DNA from: an uncultured Bacteroidales bacterium
GTDB lineage: Bacteria; Bacteroidota; Bacteroidia; Bacteroidales; FEN-979
Length of the DNA: 64,000 nt
Assembly (NCBI GenBank): GCA_903926565.1
Contig: CAIYJU010000052.1
Span: 18,581-82,580, forward strand
Direction of reading: 5' to 3'
The notes under the pieces are model-generated. The model was not told the origin of the DNA. It saw only the letters and a list, made by a program, of their open reading frames with translations, and did no database searches. A program made the translations under genes and the position numbers. Below, piece by piece: positions 2,235 through 31,337 of this stretch; position 1 is the stretch's first letter, and each line of letters begins with the position of its first letter.

Positions 2235-4706
2235 ATGCAAATAGTAATAAAATCCATGAAGTCTGTTGCCATTATGACCTTGATTTGCACCCTGTGGTTA
2301 CATGGCATTTCATTGCTTGCTCAGAATACCGATGCTCCGCCAACCGTTCAGGATTGCCTCGGAGCCATCCCGGTATGCCAGCCAATCTATACAACCACAA
2401 CATCCTATACCGGACATGGAAATGTCTATCCTGAAATCAGGAACAACAGCGTTTGCCCGCTCTGCATGGATGGCGAAAAAAATGATGTCTTTTATGTGAT
2501 CACGGTGCAGACAAGCGGAGTCCTGCGGTTCACGCTCACACCAAACAATCCTTCGAACGACTACGATTGGTCCCTGTTTAACATGACCAATGCAGGATGC
2601 GACCAGATATACATCAATGCATCAACACTTCAGGTGAGCTGCAACTCTTATGGTATTACCGGTACAAATGGTCCGACCGGCATCAACACTTTGCTTGGGA
2701 ATAATCTGAATTGCAACGGTCCCGGTCTATCCGGAAAGAAATTCAATAAAGATCTCGCAGTACTTACAGGCCAAACCTACGTTCTCAATGTGAGCAACTG
2801 GTCACCGACAAACCAATCGGGATATACCCTTGATTTCAGCGGGTCAACCGCTTCCATCTTCGACATCACTCCGGCAACGATCGACTCCATCCAGCAAACC
2901 GTTTCGTGCGCCGGTTCCGACAGCCTTTTTGTGCAGTTCTCCGAAAACATGAAATGTGTCGACCTCTTTCACAAACCTGAAAAATTCAGCCTGACAGGTC
3001 CGGCCGGAACCTACACCATTACCGATGTTACTTCTGTGGATTGCAGGACAGGCGCCACCAACGGCAGGAGCTGTAGCCTGAAAACCAACCCGGTGCTTTC
3101 AGCAGGCAGCTATACGCTGCATATCACCGGTGATATCCGCGATCTTTGCGATAACCTTTGTGTTTACCAGGATTACCCCTTCCAGTTAACTGAAATCAAT
3201 GCGCCGGTTGTTTCTGCCGGCAACGATACCACGGTTGCCAATGGCGCAATCATCACGCTTCACGGGGCCGTTTCAGGGGGTGCAAGTCCATACACATACC
3301 ATTGGGAACCTGCAAATTTACTTACCAACCCTGCTGTTTTACAACCTGTTACCATAAACATGGGTGCCTCTGTCAATTTCATCATGAATGTGACAGACCA
3401 GGCAGGCTGCCATGGAACCTCCGACGTTTTGGTTACCGTTGTTGGCGGGCCTTTGGGTGTATTTGCAGCGGCATCCCCCGGGACTATCTGTGCAGGTTCT
3501 TCCGCGGCACTGAATGCCATGGTATCCGGCGGAAGCGGTAACTATGCTTTTTCATGGTCATCAAATCCACCGGGGTTTACTTCTGCTCTTCCTAACCCCA
3601 CTGTTTTCCCGGTATCTACCACCACATACACCGTTCAAATCAGCGATGGTTTCAGCAATGTTTCCGGAACTGCGACAGTCATTGTAAACCCAAAGCCCAT
3701 CGCCGGTGCGGGTTCAAACACCAGCATCCCTTATGGCACAAACGCCACGCTGAATGGAACAGCATCCGGCGGGTCGGGAAATTACAGCGCTTACTGGACA
3801 TCAAGTCCCCCCGGTTTTTCATCGGCAAGCCTTATCGCCCAGGTCACCAACCTGACAGTGACTTCCATCTTCACTCTAACCGTCACCGACAATATCACCG
3901 GATGCATCAGTGAAGCGGCTCAGGTGATGGTTTCTGTTACCGGGAGCCCGCTGGCATGCAATCCGGTTGCAAACCCGGCGGTCATGTGCCAGGGGGAGCG
4001 CACCACGCTGCATCCCATGGTTGGAGGAGGCTCAGGAAGTTACACCTACACCTGGACCTCAACACCTCCGGGATTTACCTCGAATGAATCCGATCCGCAG
4101 GTTGTTCCGGATGAGACCACAAACTACATGCTCACCATCTTCGATGGGTTTAACCATGCATCCGGGGTCGTGAATGTGCATGTAAAGCCACTCCCGCTGA
4201 TACTCAACTGGCCTGCCGACACCACTGCCTGCATCTACCAGAAGCTCATCCTCGACGCCGGTAATCCGGGTTCCGCCTACTACTGGTCGAATGGAGCGAC
4301 GACGCAAACGATCGAAGTTGAAACCACCGGCCTTGGTTACGATGTGCAGACTTACCGCGTTAAGGTACTTAATGAATATGGTTGTGTTGATTCGGCAGAT
4401 TCCAGGGTAAGTTTCTCCTTCTCGGCTTGCACTGCAATTGAAGAGGTGCTGCCGGAAGGGTCCCTGAGAATCTATCCCAACCCCGGCAACTCAAAACTGC
4501 ATCTCGAAATCAGGTATCCGTGTCAGCTAATGGAAGTGGTCATCTCCACCATCGTCGGTGAACCTGTGCTGACCGACCGGATTGATCTCTCCGCAGGTGT
4601 AATGGTTGACCGTGAGTATGACCTATCCCCGTTTGCAAAAGGGCTTTACCTGGTTACGCTGAAAAGCAATGTAATTTCAAGAACGCTGAAATTTATCAAT
4701 CGTTAA
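2235..4706 (+). CDS. T9SS-secreted surface protein with tandem SprB-type repeats and a C-terminal T9SS sorting domain; the likely true start is MKSVAIM at 2256
   Basis: Signal peptide; at least 4 repeats of G-G-(A/S)-(S/G)-x-Y-x-(Y/F)-x-W...PPGF (SprB-repeat-like); C-terminus ...LRIYPNPGNSKLHLEI...KGLYLVTLKSNVISRTLKFINR is typical of Por_Secre_tail. Confidence 0.8.
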   Translation: MQIVIKSMKSVAIMTLICTLWLHGISLLAQNTDAPPTVQDCLGAIPVCQPIYTTTTSYTGHGNVYPEIRNNSVCPLCMDGEKNDVFYVITVQTSGVLRFTLTPNNPSNDYDWSLFNMTNAGCDQIYINASTLQVSCNSYGITGTNGPTGINTLLGNNLNCNGPGLSGKKFNKDLAVLTGQTYVLNVSNWSPTNQSGYTLDFSGSTASIFDITPATIDSIQQTVSCAGSDSLFVQFSENMKCVDLFHKPEKFSLTGPAGTYTITDVTSVDCRTGATNGRSCSLKTNPVLSAGSYTLHITGDIRDLCDNLCVYQDYPFQLTEINAPVVSAGNDTTVANGAIITLHGAVSGGASPYTYHWEPANLLTNPAVLQPVTINMGASVNFIMNVTDQAGCHGTSDVLVTVVGGPLGVFAAASPGTICAGSSAALNAMVSGGSGNYAFSWSSNPPGFTSALPNPTVFPVSTTTYTVQISDGFSNVSGTATVIVNPKPIAGAGSNTSIPYGTNATLNGTASGGSGNYSAYWTSSPPGFSSASLIAQVTNLTVTSIFTLTVTDNITGCISEAAQVMVSVTGSPLACNPVANPAVMCQGERTTLHPMVGGGSGSYTYTWTSTPPGFTSNESDPQVVPDETTNYMLTIFDGFNHASGVVNVHVKPLPLILNWPADTTACIYQKLILDAGNPGSAYYWSNGATTQTIEVETTGLGYDVQTYRVKVLNEYGCVDSADSRVSFSFSACTAIEEVLPEGSLRIYPNPGNSKLHLEIRYPCQLMEVVISTIVGEPVLTDRIDLSAGVMVDREYDLSPFAKGLYLVTLKSNVISRTLKFINR

Positions 4707-4775: not shown

Positions 4776-6173
4776 TTATTCTTTGATGAGTTCAATGCTC
4801 TTTAAAGAACGGCCTGTAATGATTCTAAGCAAATACATCCCCGTCGGCAGTCCTGAAAAATCCTCACGTTCTATGTGTTTTCCGGTAAAAATTGCACATC
4901 CCGTGCTGTTCGTCAGCAAATAATCTTCATTCCCTGCCGCTCCTTTTATCCGAATATGATTTTTAAACGGGTTCGGAAAAGGTACCAGGGAATTATTACC
5001 CGGGTCAGCAGGTCCAGGGATGCTGGTCGGCAGATCCAGTCCGATACCCGTATCACATTTCCTGAGGCGGTAAGTACGTTCAGGCCCGCTTCGTTCGCTG
5101 ACTTCCGTATAATAAACCAGCAATGAATCGCTTGTGGCCAGTGTTTCAGGATCAGTACGGATACCTGCTACCGAATCGGAAACCATCCTGTAAAACGGGT
5201 TGATGCTGTCTATTTTTGCAATCCAAATTTCGCCGGGAACATTGGCTGTTTCAAATTCTGACGAAGATGCCATAAAGGTAATGTAGGATTGTCCGTTATA
5301 CACACAAGGTTCCGGGGATCCAAATTTATTGTAGGCAGGATTGGCGGATGGGCTGGTGAACGTCATATACAACCCATAGTTGTTGCTGTTGGGAGTGACT
5401 TCTTTGAACACCTGCAACTCTTCCCCGTTAGCGACCGCAAATAACATCCGTGCATTCTGATGTTCCGGCGCATGCCAGTTAAAGGGACGTGAATAGTGTT
5501 TATTGTAATCAAATGTCAGCTGAACCGGTATGGCAGGACTCGACGGATCAAACAGCCCCACCTGGTGATTACCCTTCAGGATCCCGGTTATAATCTGCTC
5601 ATCACTGCCCCAGTGCGCATCTTTGAAATCGTGAACCCAGTATTCGTGCGCCGGATTGTTGATGTATTTATATTTGGTGTAATTGGTCAGCATTGTTGAC
5701 ACATAGTGAATGGCAACAAAGGAGTCGGCCGGGTTTCTTGACGCATGCGGGTTCATCCGGTGCGGGGCATCGGTGAGGGTACACAGTGACCACGCCGAAC
5801 CATTCTCAGCTGCTACCGCCACGTACCGCTTTCTGTCAGTTTCCTTATTATACACGATGTAGGTCCCGTTCAGATCGTACCCCCATTCACCACTGTTCGA
5901 GGTAACATCAATAGAGGTGAGTAAACTGTCGACAAGAATCTCTCTGCCATCAGGAACTGTCAGTGACCAGGTGGTGGTGTCAAGATGGCACACCCACAAT
6001 TTGTTTTCATCCGGGGACTGGAAGCAGAGCCTTTTTTTAAACGGATCGATTTCAATATCACAAATTTTTGCACTCCGGCTGCTCACCAATACATCATGAA
6101 TGGCAAATGACTGAGACCTGCCCTGCAAAATAATGACTACCAACAAAAGGAAAAATACAAATCTGAATACCAT
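4776..6173 (-). CDS. T9SS C-terminal-domain protein of unknown function (possibly beta-propeller)
   Basis: Signal peptide and a C-terminal ...LVPFPNPFKNHIRIKG...GMYLLRIITGRSLKSIELIKE sorting domain. Confidence 0.7.
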   Translation of the reverse strand: MVFRFVFFLLLVVIILQGRSQSFAIHDVLVSSRSAKICDIEIDPFKKRLCFQSPDENKLWVCHLDTTTWSLTVPDGREILVDSLLTSIDVTSNSGEWGYDLNGTYIVYNKETDRKRYVAVAAENGSAWSLCTLTDAPHRMNPHASRNPADSFVAIHYVSTMLTNYTKYKYINNPAHEYWVHDFKDAHWGSDEQIITGILKGNHQVGLFDPSSPAIPVQLTFDYNKHYSRPFNWHAPEHQNARMLFAVANGEELQVFKEVTPNSNNYGLYMTFTSPSANPAYNKFGSPEPCVYNGQSYITFMASSSEFETANVPGEIWIAKIDSINPFYRMVSDSVAGIRTDPETLATSDSLLVYYTEVSERSGPERTYRLRKCDTGIGLDLPTSIPGPADPGNNSLVPFPNPFKNHIRIKGAAGNEDYLLTNSTGCAIFTGKHIEREDFSGLPTGMYLLRIITGRSLKSIELIKE

Positions 6174-9810: not shown

Positions 9811-10887
9811 TTAAAAAGCCCTCACCGCACGCACATAGGGGTCGGCGTAGTTCTTATTGGGGGTGTACTCGTTGCCATAGTAAAGGTACAGGAGCCACGC
9901 GGTGTTCTGATCGATCTCTGTGGAACTCCAATAGTACCAGTTAGCAAAACTTCCAAATCCAGCCACTTTCATCGCATAAAGTTTGAGTAACTCATACTTT
10001 GAAGGCAAATACCAATCAGTGTAACCGCCACCTGCATAATCTCTGCATATCTTAGCGGCATAAGTTCCTGTATTACCCTGGCTGGCGATAATTGCCGTGG
10101 TATTTGCACTGCCTGTACCCAAGGCGGTGCCTGTTGCTCCTGTTATTGTATATGTTCCATTATACCAGGTTTTGCCTGTACCCTGATCGCCAATGGCTGC
10201 TATTAAACCATGCGTTTCTCCTGCTATGTAACCCGGGTCGCCGGATTGCAAAACATAAGCTAGTATTCCTCCCCCGTAACTTTGGCCGATAGCCAATGCC
10301 ACGGGCGTTACTGAATTGGAAGCAGCGCTTGCCGCACCTGTACCCGTTGCATTGGTAGCTGCAACGGTAAAAGTGTAAGCTGTACCATTGGTCAGCCCGG
10401 TTACGGTAATGGTTCCGCTTCCTGCCTGTGTCAATGTACCGGTAAAACTGCCAGGCGTTGACGTAGCTGTGTAGGATGTTATTGTTGAACCGCCATTGGA
10501 AGCAGGCGCTGTAAAAGGGACTGATGCCTGTGCAGGTCCTGCAGTTGCTGTACCTGTTGTTGGCGCACCGGGCACGCCTGAGGCAGTGCCTGCGGTGAGG
10601 CTTGTCCAGATAGTCCCGTTATAAATCTGCAATTCGCCGGCTGCCCCGCAATTGCTGCACCATACGATCAGACCCGCAGGAGGACTGGAAATGAGAATCT
10701 TTTGCGCGTAAGTCATTCGCGGAGGTAACAAGCCCTTGGTGGTTGAACTTACATCGAGCATGGCTTTGCTGTTGGGGCTTGAGCCATTGTCGTTGATGCC
10801 CACGCTTCCGGTTTGGGCAAACATGCTGCCGGTTAAAAACAGCATCATGATTGTTACATAAATTGCTTTTGTCATTGTTGTTTTCAT
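9811..10887 (-). CDS. secreted fibronectin-III-like protein with a C-terminal DUF1566 (Lcl C-terminal) domain
   Basis: Signal peptide. Thr/Gly-rich Fn3-like segment (PGAPTTGTATAGPAQASVPFTAPASNGGSTITSYTATSTP). C-terminal GYTDWYLPSKYELLKLY...WYYWSST signature of DUF1566. Confidence 0.6.
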   Translation of the reverse strand: MKTTMTKAIYVTIMMLFLTGSMFAQTGSVGINDNGSSPNSKAMLDVSSTTKGLLPPRMTYAQKILISSPPAGLIVWCSNCGAAGELQIYNGTIWTSLTAGTASGVPGAPTTGTATAGPAQASVPFTAPASNGGSTITSYTATSTPGSFTGTLTQAGSGTITVTGLTNGTAYTFTVAATNATGTGAASAASNSVTPVALAIGQSYGGGILAYVLQSGDPGYIAGETHGLIAAIGDQGTGKTWYNGTYTITGATGTALGTGSANTTAIIASQGNTGTYAAKICRDYAGGGYTDWYLPSKYELLKLYAMKVAGFGSFANWYYWSSTEIDQNTAWLLYLYYGNEYTPNKNYADPYVRAVRAF

Positions 10888-10957: not shown

Positions 10958-11200
10958 TCAGTGAGCCGGAAACCGCAAGGTTTTCCTTTTCAATAATTTC
11001 CACGCGCCAAAGCCGGCCACCATGGCCAGTGAAACAACCAGCCCACCATCGATGGGAGCGCCGCCACCCGGGGCTTTGTTGCTATTGGTCCCTTTTTCTG
11101 CCGGAGGAGGCGGTGGTGCCTGGGTCATGCCTGTATGGGCAACCAGGATGAAACAGAGCATCAGCAGGGAAAAGATGAGGGGGTTACGTATTTTTTTCAT
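10958..11200 (-). CDS. 80-aa secreted mini-protein made up only of a signal peptide, poly-Pro linker, Gly-rich segment and a sorting-signal-like C-terminus (GGGAPIDGGL, TM helix, KRK)
   Basis: MKKIRNPLIFSLLMLCFILVAHTGMTQA | PPPPPAEKGTNSNKAPGGGAPIDGGLVVSLAMVAGFGAWKLLKRK. Lies 18 bp downstream of a T9SS cargo gene on the same strand. Confidence 0.55.
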   Translation of the reverse strand: MKKIRNPLIFSLLMLCFILVAHTGMTQAPPPPPAEKGTNSNKAPGGGAPIDGGLVVSLAMVAGFGAWKLLKRKTLRFPAH

Positions 11201-11218
11201 GATTTATCGTTTTGATAG

Positions 11219-11728
11219 TTATTTAATAAAAACTTTCCCTGAGAAAACCTGGTCGCCGGTTACCACCTTTACCAGGTAATACCCGGTGGCCCCGTTGAGG
11301 TTGATCCTTGCCAGCGAATTCTCGCTGAGTTGCTGTTGCATCACCTGCTGGCCAATCATGTTGTACACGATCACCCTGCCATTGAGCATAACGCCTGATG
11401 TACCGAAGATGTATATCGTATTACCAGAGGCATAAATTGTGACCGGTGATTCCATCTCTTTGTCATTCACGCTGAAAGTACCGCCAAAATGGAGCAGGAA
11501 ACGGGCTGCATCATCAGTTTTGGCGGAGGAAAAGGTGTAAGCCGGGTTGGTTACCCCGGGGCTGGTAAGGGTGAAGGCGCCATTATCAACCACCCAGTAA
11601 CTGCCTGTTTCTCTTATAATCCTGGCGCCGGATTCAGCTTTTATTAACCCCTGGGCGAATGAGTAAAATGGAATTAACACCGGTAATATTAATACCAGCA
11701 GTCTGATCATTCGTCTGTTCTTTTTCAT
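11219..11728 (-). CDS. small (169 aa) T9SS C-terminal-domain protein
   Basis: Signal peptide MKKNRRMIRLLVLILPVLIPFYSFAQG; C-terminus ...GYYLVKVVTGDQVFSGKVFIK. Confidence 0.65.
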   Translation of the reverse strand: MKKNRRMIRLLVLILPVLIPFYSFAQGLIKAESGARIIRETGSYWVVDNGAFTLTSPGVTNPAYTFSSAKTDDAARFLLHFGGTFSVNDKEMESPVTIYASGNTIYIFGTSGVMLNGRVIVYNMIGQQVMQQQLSENSLARINLNGATGYYLVKVVTGDQVFSGKVFIK

Positions 11729-11875
11729 TTGAATAATTTGAGGTTCTAAATTGTAACAGTTGAATTTTGAAAATGCATGAAAAGACGATAAAACTATGAT
11801 TAATAATTAGTTTCGATGATTCAAAGTGTATAATAAACCGTCCAAAACGTACATTTTTGAAGTCATTGCCTGGTT

Positions 11876-11965
11876 TTACCCCCTGATGATACGAATCGGA
11901 ACATGATTGGCGCCAGATTCAGCTTTTATCACCCCTTGAGGGAAAGCAGAAAATTGACAATTTAC
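11876..11965 (-). pseudogene. truncated paralogous copy of the 5-prime end of the 11219..11728 gene
   Basis: About 40 nt of DNA identity (ggcgccRgattcagcttttat...cccct) encoding AFPQGVIKAESGA..RIIRG* against FAQGLIKAESGARIIRETG... in the intact gene. The reading frame stops immediately afterwards. Confidence 0.4.
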
Positions 11966-12517
11966 TCTTGTACCAATAAAAAAATCAATGGCAAAGATTA
12001 CCCTGTCGAATAAACCCGCCGCCGTAAATAAAATGAAATTTAAAAGCAAATTCGCTGGAATAGTTGTAACAGAATTTTTAGTTCCTTTAGAAAACACCAA
12101 GGAAAGTCCTTCAGGCGTCTCTGCTTCCAATATATGTGCCAATAAATAAGAAAACTGCGGGATCACAGTGGATGATACAGTTAATTATTTGAAAATGAAA
12201 GCGAAAAAAATCAGTTAGTTTTCAGGTGGAAAGTATTCAGGCTGCAGCCTTCTCATCACAACAACATGTTTATTGAAATTTTCGCGTTAATGTGCGAAAA
12301 GGCGTGGGCTGTAAATATTGATGCCAGTCATTGACATGTTTCTGCAGAAGTTCTTTATTTTGGTCTTCAGAGGGTTCTTCTTGTTACCCCCATTAGGTGA
12401 GCGGGGGTGGTCAACTGAATCGGTTTGTCGCTTTGGCAGCCTGACTTTATTTCAGGTGAGTTTCAATCATTAAAATTGGTGGATTTTTCCTCAAACCCTG
12501 GCCAAAACCTGGCGGAA

Positions 12518-12605
12518 AACAAAAAACCACCTGCAGTTTAACGTGTAAGTGGTTGATTTTGAATTGGGGCCATCAGAACTTGAACTTGGGACCAATTGAC
12601 AATGA
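12518..12605 (-). repeat. degenerate duplicate of the tRNA-Met 3-prime half (T-arm and acceptor) plus its terminator hairpin; direct repeat of 20069..20156
   Basis: About 80-85 % identity over ~88 nt to the 3-prime half and terminator of the tRNA at 20116..20189. D-arm and anticodon arm are absent, so it is not a functional tRNA. Confidence 0.55.
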
Positions 12606-12676
12606 ACTTATTTATATGATTTTCAGCTCATTATAAAATTTCGTCATCTGATTGTTTTTCTTATCATTGATAATAA

Positions 12677-12919
12677 TTAAGGGTGTGTTGTAATGGCAGC
12701 AACGTTGGAATACTTCGCCTTATAAAGCATCCTTCCGCCATACGCTGCAACTATGGCCAGGAAGAGGGTCAAACTCCCATCGATGGGAGCGCCACCTCCG
12801 CCAACGGGGCCGAGGGTACCGCCATTTGAAGGATCAACAGGTGGAGCTGGCGGTGCCTGGGCTAAAAGTGAAATTCCGCTGATCATCAAAATTGCTGTAA
12901 TTGCTAAAATCTTTTTCAT
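12677..12919 (-). CDS. 80-aa secreted mini-protein, paralogue of 10958..11200 (signal peptide, PPAPP linker, Gly-rich, GGGAPIDGSL, TM helix, basic tail)
   Basis: MKKILAITAILMISGISLLAQA | PPAPPVDPSNGGTLGPVGGGGAPIDGSLTLFLAIVAAYGGRMLYKAKY... The start codon at 12919 was chosen because it gives a canonical signal peptide. Lies 65 bp downstream of the beta-helix T9SS gene. Confidence 0.55.
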   Translation of the reverse strand: MKKILAITAILMISGISLLAQAPPAPPVDPSNGGTLGPVGGGGAPIDGSLTLFLAIVAAYGGRMLYKAKYSNVAAITTHP

Positions 12920-13026
12920 TGTTATAGTTTTTAACTTTATATAAACACTTTTCATTACCACAGAGTAACGCAGAGATTTTCGCAGAGAACCGCAGAGATT
13001 TTTTGGTGGTTCTCTGCGGTAAACTT

Positions 13027-16000
13027 CTAATTTATTATAATTCCTTTTACCGTCATCACTTCATTTCCTGTCGTGAGTTTAGCTACAACAAAACCTTTGC
13101 AGTTAATTTGCAGTGTCGAAAGTTTGCTCAGAACGATGGTCTTGCTCAGCAGCTTTTGGCAGGAGGCGTTGTAAACTTCCAACAATCCGGTTTGTCCTGC
13201 AAGGCTGGGTGCATTGATGTAAACCGTATTTCCCGAAATCCATAAATTTCCCGAAAAGCTTGCCGGTTCTTCAATTCCGATTGTCCCACCAAAAACCAGT
13301 TTAAAACGGCTGGCATCATTTCCAGGATTGTGAATGAAGGTATAAACCGGCTGGTTGCGCAGGTTGATGGTTTGGTTGGTGAGTTCGTCTTTGAGGCAGA
13401 TGTTCAATGTCGGGTCGAAGCTTTCCATATTTGCGAAAGATAGATTCACCACACCTGCAAACTGGGTTTCAAAATTCATTGGAACCATTGTGTCATCCGA
13501 CAAATTGCCCAGGGCGTTAATGGTAACTTTGTTTTCGCCGGCCATCGTGTAAATTTGAGGAGCATCGTCAGCGCCATAAAACTTTACAGCGTCTTCGTAA
13601 GGACTGTAATCGTTCGTGTTGGTTTCGCCAAATCCCACAAGCAGTTCATCGGCCATGCCATTGGCGACAGCGTTTACGCGTAACTGCTGAGCTACCAATT
13701 CAGTATTTTTAAGGAACGTGGCACCCGAATGTGTACGTACACCGTTATCCATTATCAAGCTTGGGCTGGTGTTGGTGGTTTGAACAAAAAATGCCTGCCC
13801 AACTGCAATATACCGCGATGCATTAAAAGTTCCACCACTTCCATTCCAAACCCCATAATTACCGTTGTTATAAATCCAAATGGAAGTTCCGATATTGGTT
13901 TTTGTCCAGCCCGATGCAGCGTTCCAGTCAATGTTGGAAGGATAAGGGTTTGGGACGAGGGCAAAGTTGAGGCCATCGGCATGTCCGTGGTAAGTAACCG
14001 AAGGGGTAAACGTGCCGGTATTCGGAGCTCCTGTAAAACTGTAAGTTGTGCTGATGCCTGGGTAGTAAATCATATAACCTACCGTTTCATCGAGTTCAGT
14101 GGCAGAGCTGTTCCCCATGCCCGACCAGATGTTGGAGGTTGGCAAATACTCGTAAAGGTACGAACCCGAAAATAAGCCGGATAACGAATTGTTGCTTGTT
14201 GCCAACGGCACCGAAGCCAGGTGGTATTTGTATGCGTCCAGGTTGCTGCTTCCTTCAACCGTGCGTTGTATGCTTATATTTCCGCTAACACTGCCGTTTG
14301 TCATAAGCGAGCCACCGGATTGTACGGTAAGGCTGGCATCAGCGTTAACGGTAAGGTCAAAGCAATCGGCCGAACCGCCACTCAACACAACAGGCTGGTT
14401 GGCAGCAGTTCCGGGGATGGTTACATTTGCCGATGCATCGGGCACAGTGTTGCTGCTCCAGTTGGTTACCGTATTCCAGTCGTTGCCTGATGTACCTGTC
14501 CAGGTAAAGGTAACAGATGGAATGTATTCAAAAGAGCCAATATCTTTTACTCCGGAGTTGGAATAACCTCTTTGGTCGGTTGCCGGTATTTCAGTACCCG
14601 ACATACCGGCATTGATTGCCGGGCTGCCTGGCAGCAATGCAAAAGTTTTAGTATAACCACCATTATCGGCAAGTGAACCAAGTAAAGGGTCGGTTGCAAT
14701 CTGGCAATTAGTATAACTCCCTATTGCTGCACCTATATCATTGGTATTTTCAAGATTACAATTAGTAAAGTTATAACTGGTAGTGTTATTTGCAAAAAAC
14801 TGCGGTCCACCATCTGTTGCAGTATTTCCATACATTATATCGTTTTTAAAATTAACAGGGTTTGTTGTAGGCTGTCCATTGGTTGAATATGCACCGCCCC
14901 TTCCGGCTGCATTTCCCAAAAAAGTAGAGTTGATAATACCATAATTATTATTAGTTGTAGAAGGAAATACAAGAATAGCACCACCACAATTTCCTGCACT
15001 ATTGTTGCTGAAGGTTGTGTTTGTAATCAACAAATTTTTATCTCCATTAGAATTAACAAAAATGATCGCACCTCCACCCGACTTGTTAGCAATTTGCATT
15101 AAACTTGAAACATGATGATTATCAGAAAAGGTGGAATTCTCAACATCAAGATTACTATGTTGGGTATATAATCCTCCCCCACCTGTATAATCATAATCTC
15201 CAGCAGGAGTTGTTGCATAATTTGATTCAATAGCACAATTTTTGATATGAAGTGTGGTGTTTGCTACAAAAATACCACCTCCGTAATATGTAGATTTCCC
15301 ATTCCGGATAGTTACTTTTTCAAAACTATAAAAGGTATCATCCAAATAGCTCGAATTGCTAAAATTAAATACCCTGCCGGAAGCAGTATTAGGGATAGCA
15401 GCTGCCTGTATGATTGTCAGAGCCGGTCCTTGACCAATTATTGTTAATGATTTGTCTGACACATAAATTTCCGATTCAGTAAAAGTTCCTGCCGATAATA
15501 ACAGAATATCTCTTGATCCGGCAGCACTTGCGGCACTCGTAATAGTAGTGTACATTTGTCCTGCACCAACAGTCAGCACACCAATGAAATCAACTGAAAA
15601 GCTGCTGCTTGAGTTAGCCGTTCCGGCTGCATCTCCATTTGAGAAAGCACTATTATTGAACTGCAAATTAATATTATCGATTTCATCTGTAGTGGAATGC
15701 GATGCGGCATTACCTATCAAAGTGAGGGTTAAGGCAAGACTGTTATTCCTGATCAATGAAGCAGTAAGCCCGGTTGGAACATTGCTTATACTTACTTTCC
15801 CGGTATTTACAAAATTCTCACCATCTGTTCCGCTAAAACTGGTTCCATCAAAATTGTTGTGAACTATAGCGACTGAAGTGCCAATTGAACCATCATTTGA
15901 TAAATTTTCAAGAAATTTGAAGGAACTATAGGCCACTTCAGGCTGTGGCAGATAAACACTTAATGTTAATCCATTCCAGCCAGTTAATGGTGGGCTTCCG

Positions 16001-16257
16001 GCATCCATGCTCATATAATAATCCATAATATTACCCCCAAAATAATCTCCTATCACCCAAAAACTAGAGTTGTAACCAATTGCCCATTGTGTACTCCCAT
16101 CATTATACAAAAACAGGGGTTGCCCATTCATAGTGCCGGTTTCTATGTAAAGACCGTTAAGTGGAGTAAACCATGACCCACTCACCACATAATCTGTAGC
16201 CGAAACTGAAAAGGCCAAGGAAATAACCAGGCAAAAAGTGACGAAAATCTTTTTCAT
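13027..16257 (-). CDS. large secreted right-handed parallel beta-helix (pectin-lyase-fold) adhesin-like protein with a T9SS-type C-terminal domain
   Basis: Signal peptide MKKIFVTFCLVISLAFSVSA. Many N/G/T-rich beta-helix rungs (NSxFxxN, GGGI, AIIFVNSNG...). C-terminal beta-sandwich tail ...LLEVYNASCQKLLSKTIVLS...VKGIIIN. Confidence 0.7.
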   Translation of the reverse strand: MKKIFVTFCLVISLAFSVSATDYVVSGSWFTPLNGLYIETGTMNGQPLFLYNDGSTQWAIGYNSSFWVIGDYFGGNIMDYYMSMDAGSPPLTGWNGLTLSVYLPQPEVAYSSFKFLENLSNDGSIGTSVAIVHNNFDGTSFSGTDGENFVNTGKVSISNVPTGLTASLIRNNSLALTLTLIGNAASHSTTDEIDNINLQFNNSAFSNGDAAGTANSSSSFSVDFIGVLTVGAGQMYTTITSAASAAGSRDILLLSAGTFTESEIYVSDKSLTIIGQGPALTIIQAAAIPNTASGRVFNFSNSSYLDDTFYSFEKVTIRNGKSTYYGGGIFVANTTLHIKNCAIESNYATTPAGDYDYTGGGGLYTQHSNLDVENSTFSDNHHVSSLMQIANKSGGGAIIFVNSNGDKNLLITNTTFSNNSAGNCGGAILVFPSTTNNNYGIINSTFLGNAAGRGGAYSTNGQPTTNPVNFKNDIMYGNTATDGGPQFFANNTTSYNFTNCNLENTNDIGAAIGSYTNCQIATDPLLGSLADNGGYTKTFALLPGSPAINAGMSGTEIPATDQRGYSNSGVKDIGSFEYIPSVTFTWTGTSGNDWNTVTNWSSNTVPDASANVTIPGTAANQPVVLSGGSADCFDLTVNADASLTVQSGGSLMTNGSVSGNISIQRTVEGSSNLDAYKYHLASVPLATSNNSLSGLFSGSYLYEYLPTSNIWSGMGNSSATELDETVGYMIYYPGISTTYSFTGAPNTGTFTPSVTYHGHADGLNFALVPNPYPSNIDWNAASGWTKTNIGTSIWIYNNGNYGVWNGSGGTFNASRYIAVGQAFFVQTTNTSPSLIMDNGVRTHSGATFLKNTELVAQQLRVNAVANGMADELLVGFGETNTNDYSPYEDAVKFYGADDAPQIYTMAGENKVTINALGNLSDDTMVPMNFETQFAGVVNLSFANMESFDPTLNICLKDELTNQTINLRNQPVYTFIHNPGNDASRFKLVFGGTIGIEEPASFSGNLWISGNTVYINAPSLAGQTGLLEVYNASCQKLLSKTIVLSKLSTLQINCKGFVVAKLTTGNEVMTVKGIIIN

Positions 16258-16799
16258 ACCATATTTTTTATAAATTGTTTGTTTGCAAATCATGAGCAGA
16301 AACTATTTTATTCTGACAGTGGCCATTGACTTTTTTGGCGGGATCATTTACGGCCCCGGTTTTTACTGCCATAAAATGATAGTGGAAATGCCATCCGTTA
16401 ATTAACATCAGGCTGTATTTCGCTCCAGGTCTGGCTCAAAGCTGCAGTACCGAAACGGAGCATGGCCAACACTAAAAGCAGGGCCGGCAGAATATTTTTA
16501 AAGTTGAATTTGTTCATGGTTTATTTTTTGATGATACCCGGCAAAGTAAAAGCCAATTAAGCCTTCACGCAAATACTTGTTGTTCCAAAAGTGGCAAAAC
16601 GGCTTGCCGTTTTTGAGAGTTTGCACTATTGGCGGGGGATACAGAGGGTGCTGCGTTTTTGGATTCCCCCAAATAGGGAATAAGCAGAAGTGTGCCAAAG
16701 ATTAAAACCCGAAGAAAGCTGAATAAGAAATGGACCATTCAGGGTATGAATGAAGCAGGGAGAAATCGGATAAATAATGTTTTGGGTGGCCAAGGATCG

Positions 16800-18695
16800 T
16801 CAGGCAGCGTGCCCGGCAGGCGGTTTTGTGATGTTCTTCCTGTAATAATTAGGCAGCACCCCGGTAACTTGCTGAAAGGCCCTGTAAAAGCTTTGTGCAC
16901 TGCCAAAGCCTGCATCGGCAGCAATGGCCGTTATTTTATAATTACGGCCTTCGGCACTCTCGGCCAGCGTAATGGCATGCTCCACCCGGTACATATTGGT
17001 AAAAGAAACAAAGTTCGAATCGCTGTACTGACTCAATGAGGAAGCGATTGCCTTGCGGGTGGTGTTAAGGGTTTCGGCAATATCCTCTACCCGAAGCCGG
17101 GGATTCAGGTAAGGCTTTTCAGTTTCGTAATAATGATGCAATTGTTTCAGTAGCACCTGGCTTTCCACGGTTAGTGTGTTTGCATCGAACGGTGCATTAC
17201 CGGCACTCAGAATGGCTTCAGCCTGTTTATCGCGCTGGGCACGCTCCTCCCGGTAAAGTTTTATAAGTTTGTCGAAGGCTTCGCCCCGCTCCTTTGATAG
17301 ACGCGTATTCCTTTTTAGAAGCAGGCCCAGCAGCACTATTGCCAATACGATAACAGCAATGATGATTTCGCTTAACAGCAGTTTGTTTTCTTTGTTCTTC
17401 AGAAGAGAGCTCAGGTTAACATTTTCAAGTTCTTTTTTCTCAGCCTTCTGGTATTTGGCTATATAAGCGATGGTGGCTTGTTTATCCTTGTGCGTAACCG
17501 AATCCCTCTGAGCCATCACCTTATTCGACAGACGGGTGTATTCCGTCATTTTCCCCTGCACTTTGTACGACCGAAGCAATGTTTCGCTGAAATCCGGTAC
17601 CAGCGACAGTAGCCCGAGGGAATCAGCCATCCTTATCGACTGCTTAAGGTAAAAGTCAGCCCTGGGGAAATCCTGTGTAAGAATATATATTTCGCCGAAA
17701 GCATGGTAAACCCTGGCCATTCCTCCAAGCAACCGGTTTTGCCTGCAAAGCGATAATACAGTGTCGAATTCATGCAAGGCCATCGAATAGTCCTTCTTAT
17801 CAAAGTACAGATTGGCAATATTAAACCGGGTTATAATACTATTCATCGTCGAAGACTCCCTATTCAAAGCTAATGATTTCCTGTAAAAAAACATGGAACT
17901 GTCGGGCCTGACTGTACGCAGCGCAATGCCCAGGTTATTATAAGCAACAATCAGGCTGGCAGTATCCTGGACCTGTGCTATTTTTTCACATCCTATTCTG
18001 CTGTAACGGATGGCTTCCTCCATATTGCCCATCAGTCTGTAGTTGAATCCAATATTTATGCTTTCGTCACCCAGGGTTTTTATATCTCCAAGTTGCTCGG
18101 AAATTTCATACGCCTTCATCAGGTATTCGTGCGCTTTGATGTAATTGCCCATGTCGCTCAACAGGTTGCCATAAAGGTCGCAGGCATTCCCGAAACTGCG
18201 TTTATCCGCCAGCAGTTCAAAAAGGTGCAATGCCTCGAGAGTATATTTTTCGGCAAGCGTTGATTGTTCCTGGTTACGCAGAAAACGACCCATCCTCAGG
18301 CTCGACTTTGCGATATAAGCGTTATCCGATGCCTTAACGGAAATATAATGAGCTCTCAGCAATACGCTCATAGCCGAATCACTGAGCCCAAGGCTGACAA
18401 ATGCATCTGATTTAAGGAACAGCACCGGTATCAGTGATGTGTCATTCAACTTTGTGATGTGCGCATATACTAAAGCTGAATCAGCGAAAAGAATGGTGCT
18501 GTCGGGATTCCTGTTAACATAAAAGCCGGCTTTGGTAAATGCCTGATAAAAAGCTTTCTGTTCCTTGTTTTTTGTTTGATGAGATTGGTCTAACCTTTCG
18601 CAGGAATGCATGAGAACAGCAAAAATAATCAAACAACAACCCACAAAAATCAAAGCAGCGTTTTTCTGGTATTCCATCACATCAAAAGTTTTCAT
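16800..18695 (-). CDS. membrane-anchored TPR-repeat sensor fused to an AraC-type HTH transcriptional regulator
   Basis: N-terminal TM segment, multiple TPR-like repeats, an internal TM segment (LLLSEIIIAVIVLAIVLLGLLL), and a C-terminal AraC HTH (...KITAIAADAGFGSAQSFYRAFQQVTGVLPNYYRK). Confidence 0.75.
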   Translation of the reverse strand: MKTFDVMEYQKNAALIFVGCCLIIFAVLMHSCERLDQSHQTKNKEQKAFYQAFTKAGFYVNRNPDSTILFADSALVYAHITKLNDTSLIPVLFLKSDAFVSLGLSDSAMSVLLRAHYISVKASDNAYIAKSSLRMGRFLRNQEQSTLAEKYTLEALHLFELLADKRSFGNACDLYGNLLSDMGNYIKAHEYLMKAYEISEQLGDIKTLGDESINIGFNYRLMGNMEEAIRYSRIGCEKIAQVQDTASLIVAYNNLGIALRTVRPDSSMFFYRKSLALNRESSTMNSIITRFNIANLYFDKKDYSMALHEFDTVLSLCRQNRLLGGMARVYHAFGEIYILTQDFPRADFYLKQSIRMADSLGLLSLVPDFSETLLRSYKVQGKMTEYTRLSNKVMAQRDSVTHKDKQATIAYIAKYQKAEKKELENVNLSSLLKNKENKLLLSEIIIAVIVLAIVLLGLLLKRNTRLSKERGEAFDKLIKLYREERAQRDKQAEAILSAGNAPFDANTLTVESQVLLKQLHHYYETEKPYLNPRLRVEDIAETLNTTRKAIASSLSQYSDSNFVSFTNMYRVEHAITLAESAEGRNYKITAIAADAGFGSAQSFYRAFQQVTGVLPNYYRKNITKPPAGHAA

Positions 18696-18849
18696 AGCAA
18701 GCAAAGTTAGACTAAAGCTGATACCATCAATAAAATTGATTTAGATTGTTGATCATTTGGCGTGCAATCGAGATTTACACAACGAACTTGTTTGTAGTGG
18801 TCAGAGAAAAAGATAAAGCCCGCCTGTTTAAGGCGTTCGTTGGTAATGC

Positions 18850-20068
18850 TCCTTACTTAGGATTGGGCTATCGGCAACCCTCCAGTAGCCTTTTCTGGTA
18901 TTCGCAGATTCCCAGGCTTTAGGCCGTGGGATACCGAGTTTAATCAGGTTGTGGCGTTTGGATCTGATGCGTTTCCATTGTTTCCAAATCAATGATCTCA
19001 ACCGCCGTCTGAACCATTCGTCAGTTCACTCAAGCAGGATTTTCATGTCGGCAAGCCGGAAGTAATTCAGCCATCCTGTGATGAATTGGCGCAATGCTTC
19101 CTTTCTGCGTTCATTTCCCCAACCGTTGCTGCGACAGGTCAGCTCCCTGATTTTCGCATTCATCTTTTCTACGCTCTTCCGGTGAATGCGGATTTTGCAC
19201 CCATCCTTTGTAAAGTAAAATCCATACCCCAAAAACTTTACGTCTTTGATGTGGGCCACTACCGTCTTGTTTTGATTTACTTTCAGGCACAATGTACCTT
19301 CGATGTATTTCGTGATGCTTGCAAGCACCCTTGCGGCTGCCCATTCGCTTCGGCAAAATATCATACAATCGTCGGCGTACCTCACGAACCGGTGGGTTTG
19401 CAAATACAAACGCAGTGCTTCCGTATCCATCCCGTCTATCCCTCCACTCCCATTATTCCGCTTCACTTGTTTGTAAGCTGAATTTAGATTGGCAGGTGAC
19501 AGAATGTACTCAAATAGCTCTGCTCCTCCTGTCGTTATGTTGGTGTCTCCTTTTTCGGTCATCCATAGGAATGTCTGCCCTTCTGCGTAGCTTTCGAGTG
19601 CCGCTCTATCATTCTGCAAACAGGTGTCTTTATCCGTTTTCTGCTCTCTGCCATTCATACGGTAACGATCATTTGATGCTCACCTCTTAAGATTTGACCC
19701 TTCCAATATCAACCCATGGTATCGTACTATGGTCGCTGCTGACTCCTGTTGGCAATTGTTAGCCGTGTTTCTTACTCCGTTTCCACACGTCCAACAGGTC
19801 TCCCGTGGTAAACTTATTCCCTTTCATCCCAGGTAACCGCTGCATTTACACCCCAACATCCGGGTAGTTTTTGGACTTCGATTTGTCTTGCAATCTCATC
19901 CTGCCGGGTATGCCTGATGCAATTCGTGTTCCTCGGTACGGGACTTTGCCTCCTGCTTCCTTCAGATTCCGCTTCACAACGGACACCCTTGCTCCTGGCT
20001 AATGGTTGGTAACTACCGACCTCCATAAAGGACTTGCACCTTCAAGGTTATAAGTGTGCACGGCACAC
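18850..20068 (-). mobile_element. decayed group II intron (class C-like placement) inserted immediately downstream of the tRNA-Met terminator; the 3-prime boundary is approximate
   Basis: On the minus strand the terminator hairpin and U-run are followed directly by GTGTGCCGTGCAC (a GUGYG 5-prime intron consensus). An intron-encoded RT/maturase ORF lies within the element. Confidence 0.55.
19026..19658 (-). CDS. group II intron reverse transcriptase/maturase, internally deleted (RT domains 2-4 missing), probably non-functional
   Basis: ELFEYILSPANLNSAYKQVKRNNGSGGIDGMD (RT0/1) is joined directly to RFVRYADDCMIFCRS (the RT5 YADD box). The maturase X-domain motif QFITGWLNYFR is present. Total length is 210 aa against roughly 400+ aa for an intact protein. 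Confidence 0.65.
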   Translation of the reverse strand: MNGREQKTDKDTCLQNDRAALESYAEGQTFLWMTEKGDTNITTGGAELFEYILSPANLNSAYKQVKRNNGSGGIDGMDTEALRLYLQTHRFVRYADDCMIFCRSEWAAARVLASITKYIEGTLCLKVNQNKTVVAHIKDVKFLGYGFYFTKDGCKIRIHRKSVEKMNAKIRELTCRSNGWGNERRKEALRQFITGWLNYFRLADMKILLE

Positions 20069-20115: not shown

Positions 20116-20189
20116 TGGGCCCACTAGGACTTGAACCTAGGACCAATAGATTATGAGTCTACTGCTCTAACCATCTGAGCTATGGGCCC
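20116..20189 (-). tRNA. tRNA-Met (anticodon CAT; could alternatively be tRNA-Ile2 if lysidine-modified)
   Basis: GGGCCCATAGCTCAGATGGTTAGAGCAGTAGACTCATAATCTATTGGTCCTAGGTTCAAGTCCTAGTGGGCCCA folds as a cloverleaf: 7-bp acceptor stem, GTTCAAGTC T-loop, CTCATAA anticodon loop. Confidence 0.85.
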
Positions 20190-29159: not shown

Positions 29160-30494
29160 ATGATTGTGAAAAATATAAAAAAAATCCATATTGAAACGTA
29201 CGGCTGCCAGATGAACATATCTGACAGTGAGATTGTTGCATCGATTCTGACAAGTAACGGATATACCTACACCGAAGATGTGTTGTCGGCAGATATTATT
29301 TTTGTAAATACCTGTTCCATCCGCGAAAATGCGGAGGACAGGGTCAGAAAAAGACTGCAATACTTCAAATCTCTGCGAAAAAAAAGGCCGGAATTGCTGA
29401 TCGGCCTGCTGGGATGTATGGCCGACCGGACAAAGACAGCCCTGATGGAAGAGGAGCAGCTTCTTGACCTGGTGGCGGGGCCCGATTCATACCGGCATCT
29501 CCCACAGTTACTCGAACAGGTAGGCACTGGCAGGAAAGCGATTGACACCATTCTGTCTGTTGATGAGACGTATGCCGACATCACACCCGTCAGGCTCGAT
29601 TCAAACGGTGTTTCTGCCTTCATCTCCATCATGCGTGGTTGCGAAAACTATTGCTCCTACTGCGTTGTTCCGTCCACCCGCGGACAGGAACGCAGCAGGG
29701 GTGCCGCTTCCATTGTGCGTGAAACCCGCGACCTTTTTGACAAAGGGTACAGGGAAGTAACCCTGCTTGGACAGAACGTAAACTCCTACAGCTGGAAAAC
29801 AGGTGACGAGGTAATAACCTTTGCAACACTGCTCGGGCGGGTTGCCGCAGTAAACCCATTGATGCGCATCCGGTTTGCGACATCCCATCCAAAAGACATA
29901 TCCGACGAACTCCTTCATACCATTTCAGGTACGCCGAATTTATGCAAGGCCATTCACCTACCGGTCCAGTCGGGAAGCAATCACATGCTCGACCTGATGA
30001 ACCGGAAATACACCCGGGAGGATTACATGGAACGGATCAGTGCCATCAGGAAAATCATCCCGGGTTGTGCAATAACAACGGATATAATTGCAGGGTTCTG
30101 CGACGAAACTGAGGCAGATCACCAGGATACACTCTCGCTGATGCAGTGGGTTGGCTACGACAGCGCCTTCATGTTCAAATATTCTGAACGACCTCAGACA
30201 CTGGCGGCAGATACCATGACCGACAATGTTCCGGAAGAGATTAAAGATCGCAGGCTCAGGGAAATCATTGACCTTCAGCAGCAACTTTCGCTGGCAAATA
30301 ACAAAACTGAGGTCGGGAGGATTTATGAAATATTGGTTGAAGGAAAATCCAAACGATCAGACAACCAGTATTTTGGACGAAATTCCCAAAATAAGGTCGC
30401 AGTTTTCACAAAAACGGAAACCGGGCCGGGGGAATATGTCACAGTAAAAATAACGGGCGCCACTTCTGCGACATTACTGGGGGAAGTTGTTTGA
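29160..30494 (+). CDS. miaB: tRNA-i6A37 methylthiotransferase
   Basis: IHIETYGCQMNISDSE (MTTase N-terminal cysteines), radical-SAM CxxxCxxC (CENYCSYC), and a TRAM domain. Confidence 0.88.
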   Translation: MIVKNIKKIHIETYGCQMNISDSEIVASILTSNGYTYTEDVLSADIIFVNTCSIRENAEDRVRKRLQYFKSLRKKRPELLIGLLGCMADRTKTALMEEEQLLDLVAGPDSYRHLPQLLEQVGTGRKAIDTILSVDETYADITPVRLDSNGVSAFISIMRGCENYCSYCVVPSTRGQERSRGAASIVRETRDLFDKGYREVTLLGQNVNSYSWKTGDEVITFATLLGRVAAVNPLMRIRFATSHPKDISDELLHTISGTPNLCKAIHLPVQSGSNHMLDLMNRKYTREDYMERISAIRKIIPGCAITTDIIAGFCDETEADHQDTLSLMQWVGYDSAFMFKYSERPQTLAADTMTDNVPEEIKDRRLREIIDLQQQLSLANNKTEVGRIYEILVEGKSKRSDNQYFGRNSQNKVAVFTKTETGPGEYVTVKITGATSATLLGEVV

Positions 30495-30531
30495 AAAATT
30501 AGTACTTTTGCCCTTTCAACTCCATGCCACT

Positions 30532-31332: not shown

Positions 31333-31337
31333 TTCCC

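Follow-up and report, generated by a model that had tools for sequence, protein, structure and literature searches.

The closest described counterparts of the genes reported here are PEP-CTERM proteins with their exosortases (EpsH, Xrt), GlyGly-CTERM proteins with rhombosortase, the PID-CTERM model, the PorP/SprF-like partners of type IX secretion systems (T9SS), and the attachment of anionic lipopolysaccharide (A-LPS) by PorU and PorZ. The handling of type-A cargo by T9SS is poorly known outside Porphyromonas and Tannerella. We analysed a stretch of 64,000 nucleotides (hereafter the window) from an uncultured Bacteroidales bacterium (assembly GCA_903926565.1, contig CAIYJU010000052.1), in which two genes for 80-residue proteins, mini-proteins A and B, each lie behind a gene for a T9SS cargo with a type-A C-terminal domain (CTD). 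The two-gene module is very common in uncultured Bacteroidales, with thousands of instances, and joins a membrane peptide that resembles a sorting signal but has no cargo to one class of T9SS surface protein, a class defined by structure.

The PID-CTERM model (NF046080/PF28310) matches the mini-proteins over their motif, transmembrane (TM) segment and basic cluster; the differences are that most mini-proteins carry PIGSG instead of PID, and that all of them are stand-alone proteins of about 75 residues rather than the terminal domain of a passenger. With the PEP-CTERM/exosortase system the mini-proteins share a tripartite layout, multiple copies per genome and an N-terminal signal peptide, and an exosortase-family gene with the conserved Cys, Arg and His is found near some modules, but they have neither the PEP motif nor a passenger, and their tail is Lys-rich and longer. 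The nearby enzyme is likened to XrtF of Bacteroidota at the level of the exosortase family (PF09721). GlyGly-CTERM proteins likewise have a Gly-rich juxtamembrane motif, a TM segment and a basic cluster, and their processing precedes secretion by a separate outer-membrane system, that of type II secretion (T2SS) (PMC3237569), an order that parallels the inner-membrane sorting step linked to T9SS that we propose below; they differ in that the mini-proteins did not match their model, no rhombosortase was seen, and the taxa are other ones.

Two further comparisons concern T9SS itself. The genes of PorP/SprF-like partners also adjoin T9SS cargo genes and are specific to a CTD class (PMC9143113), but these partners are outer-membrane beta-barrels serving type-B CTDs, whereas the mini-protein consists of two helices and a disordered linker and accompanies type-A cargo. 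As for A-LPS attachment by PorU and PorZ, the window encodes PorZ, which places T9SS machinery in this genome, and the genes upstream of the mini-genes encode type-A CTD cargo, for which a surface-anchoring step is therefore expected; the described pathway includes no peptide anchor or small membrane protein (PMC7468200).

PID-CTERM as a curated model, T9SS cargo and exosortases were already known. Our literature search found no papers on PID-CTERM, NF046080, PF28310 or PFE-CTERM, and PID-CTERM was compared by model match alone. Relative to the literature found, the following are new: a tag-like sequence that forms an independent gene of about 75 codons, its near-obligatory coupling to a single, structurally defined cargo subclass with type-A CTDs, and the presence of an exosortase gene nearby in some lineages.

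Mini-genes of the window and their family

The original prediction, made from the DNA letters, had described two open reading frames (ORFs) of about 80 residues with a shared layout, and both are present on the minus strand (Table 1), with products 43% identical to each other (BLASTP, E=4e-9). Mini-protein A also matched the hidden Markov model (HMM) of the mini-protein family at E=2e-24. Every feature listed for the pair was found, namely the N-terminal hydrophobic signal, PPPPP or PPAPP, a Gly-rich stretch, GG(G)APIDG[GS]L, a hydrophobic segment and a basic tail. The distance of 18 nt from the stop of the 169-aa cargo gene to the start of mini-gene A was exact. The 65 nt given between the adhesin gene and mini-gene B fit only an upstream GTG at 12961; because homologues share the methionine of MKKIL, we place the start of B at the ATG at 12919, 107 nt past the adhesin stop. 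In an AlphaFold (AF2) model, the mini-protein is predicted to form helices at residues 3-19 and 48-77, the second with a predicted local distance difference test (pLDDT) score of about 90, and residues 20-47 are predicted to be disordered. A protein identical to B is encoded on 10 public contigs, and an identical copy of A is present in public assemblies.

Neither mini-protein of the window matched a Pfam model, a search of PDB sequences with the family profile gave only noise (E=2.4), and Rfam had no match in the mini-gene/cargo region. A weak NCBIfam match to Bdellovibrio Bd0108, seen in 8 of 30 members with a best E of 0.011, was put down to low-complexity Pro/Gly sequence. The imperfect hairpin between the large cargo gene and mini-gene B has no T-run and was not called by the terminator scan, and scanning the region for promoters and terminators gave no excess over shuffled controls.

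A word-indexed search with B returned 79 relatives of about 70-75 aa, and a profile search of 1.84 billion representatives returned 1764 clusters at E<=1e-3, of which 451 were at E<=1e-10. The best 150 clusters were all of 50-155 aa, the longest being tandem fusions with two matched stretches, and at E<=10 a profile of the C-terminal half matched 2833 clusters, with lengths of 59-79 aa for all of the top 120; a typical member has 60-85 residues. For 100 pairs of genes that were 70-97% identical in nucleotides, the median ratio of nonsynonymous to synonymous substitution rates (dN/dS) was 0.18 and every pair was below 0.5. The sources always name these proteins "hypothetical protein". Given this dN/dS, the thousands of homologues of constant length and the invariant columns described below, the mini ORFs are genuine genes under purifying selection. 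The two-gene module offers a rule for annotating the thousands of "hypothetical" genes of about 75 codons, which gene callers may miss. The claim that the mini-proteins are cargo-less held up: every top hit had 50-155 aa, no passenger-bearing tag was present among the top hits even with the C-terminal-half profile, and tag-bearing ORFs longer than 115 aa in 77 sequences (76 loci and the window) were only start-codon extensions. Copies are numerous within genomes, with mini-genes on at least 7 contigs of the metagenome-assembled genome (MAG) Ja1_bin-3933, several other MAGs with no fewer than 6 copies apiece, and four copies within 12 kb at one locus (L034; loci outside the window are cited by such L numbers).

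We drew the anatomy of the family from 91-93 distinct members. The N-terminus reads MKK, a variable h-region and a conserved A-Q pair, with a median signal length of 22, and is followed by Q-x-P-P-x-P and a variable linker. G-G-G-A-P-I-G-x-G is conserved at 90% or more in 91 sequences with the family consensus GGGAPIGSG, so that the core GG(G)APIDG[GS]L of the original prediction holds for both copies in the window but not for the family, in which the Asp of APIDG[GS] is atypical. After GSG comes an uncharged Gly/Ala-rich run of 12-13 residues in all 85 scored members (about 17-19 counting PIGSG), the TM segment ends in a conserved A-Y-G-G, and the tail, K-K-x-Y-x3-K (KK.Y..RK), has a median of 12 aa, with a median net charge of +3 over its first 8 residues. 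The ectodomain has a median of 25 aa, is 52% Pro plus Gly and contains no Cys.

Pro at +1 is disfavoured for signal-peptide cleavage, and the cut after AQA that had been assigned earlier would put Pro there. Because the A-Q pair is kept while the h-region varies, the signal peptide is probably cut at A|Q (A20|Q21 in B) to leave a pGlu-A-P-P N-terminus (pGlu, pyroglutamate), which fits the Q-rule of Bacteroidetes, by which signal peptidase I cuts before Gln and the Gln then cyclises (PMC5837995, PMC10653852). The mini-protein would thus sit in the membrane N-out and C-in.

Conservation is concentrated in the motif. Mean pairwise identity is 0.82 in the motif block, 52% in the TM segment and QxPPxP, and 20-26% in the signal, linker and tail; the cognate cargo proteins are 29% identical in the pre-CTD part and 24% in the CTD. 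A mirror-tree test of mini-protein and cargo regions gave no support for pairwise co-evolution of the mini-protein with its cognate cargo, since their divergences were correlated with a Spearman coefficient of at most 0.17. As the motif is far more conserved than the cognate cargo, it appears to be better explained as read by one conserved partner, an enzyme or a machine, than by the fast-evolving cognate cargo.

Mini-genes accompany one subclass of T9SS cargo

In species-representative genomes, a scan located 70 mini loci, nearly all from MAGs of Bacteroidales or Lentimicrobiaceae, with one from Chlorobiota and one from Ca. Tenebribacter. Among the products of the upstream same-strand genes, 62 of 69 distinct C-terminal pieces of 110 aa matched TIGR04183. 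In total there were 95 mini-genes, 12 of which were too near a locus edge to be evaluated, and a type-A CTD gene was present within 600 nt upstream in 71 of the 83 evaluable ones (median gap 67 nt, often 11-12 nt). The arrangement of a T9SS cargo gene followed by a mini ORF, proposed from the two cases in the window, thus recurs in Bacteroidales, in the Chlorobiota MAG and in the Ca. Tenebribacter MAG, and the mini-gene is inherited together with the cargo gene and probably transcribed together with it.

The coupling is to a subclass of cargo, a point missed by the original prediction, which had rightly placed a CTD gene upstream of each mini-gene. The cargo of this subclass carries a pre-CTD element, NLxxxxYxFxxxxxDDxxRFxLHFxxTGIxE, which lies outside the coverage of TIGR04183. 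In the same loci, a mini-gene followed 64 of the CTD ORFs with the element and did not follow 7, which comprised 3 at locus edges, 3 with a mini-gene 490-531 nt downstream and 1 truly without; among the CTD ORFs without the element, a mini-gene followed 2 and did not follow 16. Five other CTD proteins of the window (Table 1) have neither the module nor a mini-gene. The mini-genes therefore accompany one subclass of CTD cargo, defined by a C-terminal module of about 330 aa, and this synteny is very strong.

In the window, the 169-aa protein, which is a minimal type-A CTD protein, scored 23.1 bits with Pfam Por_Secre_tail and 36.2 bits with the pre-CTD HMM, its pre-CTD element being AYTFSSAKTDDAARFLLHF. 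The 1088-aa adhesin-like protein scored 14.8 bits with TIGR04183, below the cutoff of 23, and a relative of it in L016 scored 26.9 bits; in Pfam it had only a weak match to the Chlam_PMP repeat. Cargo tails in the window and in L004-L076 share the motifs GWNLVGNPYPSAIDW, YIPPGQGFFV, APQLYS and YxFxxxxxDDxxRFxLHF. An AF2 model of the module (pLDDT 88.4) has three beta domains, the last of which superposes on the RemA and RemZ CTDs from structures of the T9SS translocon (8gl6_D and 8gl8_D, TM-score 0.67-0.73). All 73 homologues of the module are named "hypothetical protein", and many of the proteins are of about 530-560 aa. Over the C-terminal region of the cargo, Pfam had nothing besides the CTD, the approximately 250 aa before the CTD had no Pfam or NCBIfam model, and Foldseek, outside the CTD, gave generic beta-sandwich matches that did not hint at what the two pre-CTD domains do. 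The pre-CTD region of about 250 aa is thus an undescribed module of T9SS cargo.

Between the two modules of the window lies a 96-aa ORF (11876..12166, minus strand), the end of which (FPQGVIKAESGA) reproduces the 169-aa cargo gene's signal-peptide junction, and a DNA repeat links 11623..11672 with 11908..11957 (78% identical); the ORF looks like a decayed duplicate of the 5' end of that cargo gene.

Some mini-genes form overlapping tandem pairs without cargo, at L078 472..964, L081 10001..10439, L060 472..916 and L054 5780..6222. The pairs in L078, L081 and L060 adjoin an RNase H (Cauli_VI+RNase_H) gene, those in L078 and L081 being placed between a pseudouridine synthase gene and the RNase H gene. 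This site beside RNase H may be a conserved "core" locus of the mini-gene family.

Match to sorting-signal models

The original prediction had read the layout as a tripartite C-terminal sorting domain and had proposed an HMM search against the models of such domains. The only model matched by either mini-protein of the window was in fact one of them, NF046080 PID_CTERM (the name is shared by Pfam PF28310), with both copies below its cutoff; the match spanned residues 49-72 of A (model positions 2-25 of 25) and residues 45-67 of B (model positions 2-24). PID_CTERM was matched by 29 of 30 relatives at E<=10 and by about 16 of 91 members at E<=7e-6 (best 9e-7), a value estimated to be equivalent to the cutoff of 26 bits, and about a third of the database relatives carried a precomputed PF28310 match. 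The mini-proteins had no match at E<=10 to the PEP-CTERM model TIGR02595, having A-P-I-G/D in place of a PEP motif, nor to the GlyGly-CTERM model.

We compared the family with the criteria set out for tripartite sorting signals (Haft, bioRxiv 10.1101/2023.06.07.544157). It shows a near-C-terminal location, multiple copies per genome, a signature motif, a hydrophobic segment and a signal peptide; the unit of motif, TM segment and basic cluster stops 8-15 residues short of the C-terminus, the tail being slightly longer than usual. The sorting-domain reading is supported by an anatomy like that of PID_CTERM, and each check named in the original prediction that was run spoke for it; the mini-protein would presumably be processed, and the lack of portability discussed below limits the reading. 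Judged from its sequence, the C-terminal half of the mini-protein is built like a sorting signal, yet it is not used as a tag on passengers.

Exosortase genes near the mini-genes

The search for an exosortase suggested by the original prediction gave none within the window, none in the adjoining 10 kb on its left, and one in each of four other mini loci. L079 carries a 188-aa PF09721 (Exosortase_EpsH) gene at 4.3 kb from a cargo and mini-gene pair, and homologues of it are present in L060 (E=1.5e-46), in L078, where the gene is frameshifted, and in the Chlorobiota locus L021 (Table 1). An exosortase gene within 4-6 kb of a mini-gene was thus found in 4 of 73 loci (664 kb), against 0.13-0.22 expected for a single-copy gene (post hoc P of about 1e-5 to 8e-5, or 4e-4 to 1.5e-3 with three independent cases). 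The short exosortases form a family of about 190-205 aa, in which Cys100 (CSG), Asn138/Arg141 and His160 are invariant in 75 sequences, and we take the set Cys100/Arg141/His160 to correspond to the Cys-Arg-His of exosortases and archaeosortases.

In L139, L150, L154, L060 and L078 the genes form a block of cargo, mini-protein, phosphoribosyltransferase (PRTase), RNase R, a polytopic membrane protein and the exosortase, and L088, L079 and L021 show other arrangements of exosortase gene and mini-gene. The mini-proteins are the only proteins with a tripartite tail found in the exosortase loci. FemAB-like and DUF3473 deacetylase genes are typical of PEP-CTERM and exopolysaccharide loci, and the other exosortase loci that we examined have such genes, often convergent, as well as genes for proteins of 231-240 aa. 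No rhomboid or CPBP gene was present in the mini-gene neighbourhoods inspected.

In the window itself, a 277-aa IPTL-CTERM-like protein scored 19.3 bits with TIGR04174 IPTL_CTERM (cutoff 20.5) and 24 bits with midcut_by_XrtH. It is the sole passenger-bearing protein with a tripartite signal among all loci scanned, and hints at a sorting system of the exosortase type in this genome.

The polytopic membrane protein is uncharacterised, with about 270-460 aa and a core of about 270 aa, and in some members about 170 basic-rich residues are added at the N-terminus. The protein had no Pfam match and no invariant residues that look catalytic.

Proposed function and alternatives

We tentatively favour, at somewhat less than an even chance, the reading that the mini-protein is a stand-alone substrate of the exosortase type that acts together with the neighbouring T9SS cargo. 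We infer its topology, the A|Q cut, the cleavage at the motif, the enzyme and the functional link to the cargo as follows. The mini-protein would be exported by Sec, and a cut of its signal peptide at A|Q would give a mature protein of about 55 aa that begins with pyroglutamate. This protein would then reside in the inner membrane, with about 25 residues rich in Pro and Gly in the periplasm, a Gly/Ala helix across the membrane and the Lys-rich tail in the cytoplasm. GGGAPI[G/D][S/G]G would be read by one membrane enzyme, the best candidate for which is the short exosortase-family protein, and this putative enzyme would cleave at the motif and, by analogy, might transfer the short Pro/Gly peptide to a glycan or a lipid. 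This product may work with the membrane-proximal module of the cargo, for instance by holding the cargo at the envelope or anchoring it there. As context for this reading, the window encodes PorZ and the IPTL-CTERM-like tagged protein, and in F. johnsoniae mutants of xrtF and of its partner gene share surface-colonisation, biofilm and zorb phenotypes with porU and porZ mutants (PMC10936215).

A stricter version, that the mini-proteins are the natural substrates of the short exosortase of Bacteroidota and the Fibrobacterota-Chlorobiota-Bacteroidota (FCB) group, and that a lipid- or glycan-linked pGlu peptide is needed for surface retention of the cargo, we regard as unlikely. If true, it would provide a direct mechanistic bridge between exosortases and type IX secretion, and would account for the likeness of these xrtF mutants to porU and porZ mutants; the substrates of Bacteroidota exosortases are stated as not known (PMC10936215). 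If the link to exosortase or cargo should prove false, the family would still be a clear case in which a sequence resembling a sorting tag has turned into an independent gene.

Several observations weigh against a stand-alone exosortase substrate tied to T9SS cargo. The PID_CTERM scores in the window (A 14.7 bits, B 18.8 bits) lie under the cutoff of 26, and the basic cluster is Lys-rich and followed by 8-15 more residues, often acidic, where the published description calls for a terminal one of 2-5 residues, mostly Arg. Sorting signals are expected to be portable, and here the members are homologous from end to end and none has a passenger; homologues lacking the tag were likewise not seen, and none are possible because there is no passenger. 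The cargo is not obligatory, since of the 83 evaluable mini-genes 10 are orphans without a cargo gene upstream, and 2 more stand behind another mini-gene. As to the enzyme, the window and the 10 kb to its left contain no exosortase homologue, the enrichment test was post hoc, and a reverse scan of 80 exosortase loci (L083-L162), most of them short stretches of DNA, showed a mini-gene in 4, each time 4.38-4.41 kb upstream. Because five loci share one syntenic block, the independent arrangements number only three or four, and that block may be clade synteny, given its housekeeping genes for PRTase and RNase R.

The alternative that survives best, though we still think it doubtful, is that the mini-protein is an unprocessed bitopic partner in the inner membrane, which escorts, tethers or hands over the cargo before T9SS transport and might act through its periplasmic Pro/Gly tether or a GxxxG-like helix, docking on a T9SS or Sec component. 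Such a role would suit the near-obligatory adjacency with short gaps (median 67 nt, many of 11-12 nt), the restriction to one cargo subclass and the Gly/Ala-rich TM segment ending in the conserved AYG; a conserved docking target would also explain the invariant motif, and the PorP/SprF-like proteins next to type-B CTD genes offer a precedent (PMC9143113). However, only about 25 low-complexity Pro/Gly residues lie in the periplasm and they contain no domain that could fold, the variable regions of the mini-protein do not co-vary with the cognate cargo, cargo-less copies exist, and the fixed geometry resembling a sorting signal and the exosortase genes nearby are left unexplained.

A substrate of another enzyme, a rhomboid/rhombosortase-type or CPBP-type protease that would release or re-anchor the peptide, is improbable. 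Rhomboids prefer a small P1 residue and hydrophobic P4 and P2' residues, a pattern that I-G-S-G|L fits, and the window has no exosortase. The combination of Gly-rich juxtamembrane motif, TM segment and basic tail resembles GlyGly-CTERM as well (PMC3237569). Yet PID_CTERM is the sole recurrent model match, and the exosortase family is the only sorting-type enzyme enriched nearby, with rhomboid and CPBP genes absent from the inspected neighbourhoods.

We attach similarly low probability to the mini-gene being a passenger of a duplicating cassette, an unrelated small membrane protein that travels with the 3' end of the cargo gene. Cargo and mini-gene are both multi-copy, their divergences correlate weakly, and orphan and tandem copies occur at the conserved site beside the RNase H gene, as such a passenger might. 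On the other hand, the adjacency survives divergence of the cargo C-terminus to about 25% identity across Bacteroidales, Chlorobiota and Ca. Tenebribacter, is restricted to the subclass with the module, and all copies are under purifying selection.

It is very improbable that the mini-protein is a signalling ligand, whose QxPPxP peptide would be bound by the periplasmic TPR domain of TPR-HTH regulators, linking the expression of the cargo to the status of the envelope. Short Pro-rich peptides are common ligands of TPR domains, and regulators with TPR, TM segment and a helix-turn-helix (HTH) domain of AraC or LuxR type are found in 24 loci, including the window. The regulator is nevertheless present in about a third of loci and its cluster is heterogeneous, the membrane-proximal motif and not the Pro-rich end is most conserved, and the mini-gene is linked far more tightly to the cargo than to the regulator. 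Finally, the chance that these are spurious ORFs in GC-rich, repeat-like intergenic DNA, as their shortness, low complexity and universal "hypothetical protein" label might suggest, is negligible in view of a dN/dS of 0.18 with all 100 pairs below 0.5, thousands of homologues of constant length and the match to a curated HMM.

Other roles were considered and abandoned. A function as cargo acceptor, in which PorU would join the cargo to the N-terminus of the mini-protein, was set aside in view of the probable pyroglutamate, the lack of a conserved Lys in the ectodomain and the presumed inner-membrane site. A SecM-like arrest peptide was rejected on the ground of gene position, downstream of the cargo gene rather than upstream of a regulated one; the absence of Cys led to the rejection of a lipoprotein; and an immunity protein or a precursor of a ribosomally synthesised and post-translationally modified peptide (RiPP) was rejected, as the partner is conserved while the N-termini of the cargo vary and no modification enzymes are nearby.

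Table 1. Positions of the features discussed, in the window unless a locus is named
Feature	Position	Strand	Remarks
IPTL-CTERM-like tagged protein, 277 aa	6470..7303	plus	signal peptide, ~215-aa domain, PPPPAP linker, IPTASEWG, TM segment, RRRN
358-aa protein with fn3 and Lcl_C domains	9811..10887	minus	
Mini-protein A	10958..11200	minus	ORF, 80 aa; more divergent paralogue
Motif of mini-protein A, GGGAPIDGG	11042..11068	minus	residues 45-53; tail KLLKRK
169-aa minimal T9SS type-A CTD protein	11219..11728	minus	TIGR04183, 31.9 bits (cutoff 23)
Mini-protein B	12677..12919	minus	ORF, 80 aa; tail RMLYKAKY...
Signature motif of mini-protein B, GGGAPIDGS	12773..12799	minus	residues 41-49
Segments of mini-protein B			signal peptide 1-20, QAPPAPP 21-27, Pro/Gly-rich ectodomain to 46, hydrophobic ~46-62
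Imperfect hairpin, 18-nt arms, 16-nt loop	12974..13025	minus	inverted repeat between cargo stop codon and mini-gene B
1088-aa adhesin-like T9SS cargo	13027..16293	minus	ORF; likely start MKKIF at 16257
~330-aa C-terminal cargo module	13030..14019	minus	two beta domains and divergent type-A CTD; alignment of 55 cargo tails
TPR, TM and AraC-HTH membrane regulator	16800..18704	minus	Pfam TPR_12, HTH_18, HTH_AraC; upstream of 1088-aa cargo gene
Group II intron	19026..19983, 20116..20189	minus	RF02001 D1-D4, 133.9 bits; 210-aa reverse transcriptase/maturase ORF, looks truncated
Poly_export gene and Wzc-like tyrosine kinase	30487..33824	plus	beside CysD/CysN-like genes
PorZ	36089..38458	plus	NF052228, 626.7 bits
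Peptidylarginine-deiminase-like (PAD_porph) protein with T9SS CTD	43276..45321	minus	no module, no mini-gene
Four further CTD proteins	2235..4706, 4776..6173, 57339..61346, 62352..63998		no module, no mini-gene
Exosortase-family gene, L079	5094..5660	minus	188 aa, PF09721
Exosortase-family genes in other mini loci	L060 10663..11268; L078 14917..15529; L021 10991..11221		
Polytopic protein beside mini-genes	L028 6751..8211; L032 7318..8133; L049 3377..4195		
Polytopic protein divergent to exosortase (five loci)	L060 9239..10549; L139 6146..7468; L150 5617..6936; L154 4454..5839	minus	

Other features of the window

Proteins related to the membrane regulator upstream of the 1088-aa cargo gene, with TPR and HTH domains, account for the 24 mini loci mentioned above. 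Just upstream of this regulator gene, and beside a tRNA gene, lies the group II intron. A short way downstream of the modules, in the window and in L004, L032, L035, L045 and L053, Lcl_C/DUF1566 and Fib_succ_major (FISUMP) proteins are encoded repeatedly. HipA/HipB-type toxin-antitoxin genes (HTH, Couple_hipA, HipA_C) are present in the window at 41.6..43.2 kb and near the module in the unrelated L004 (2334..3967), a recurrence that is probably a coincidence.

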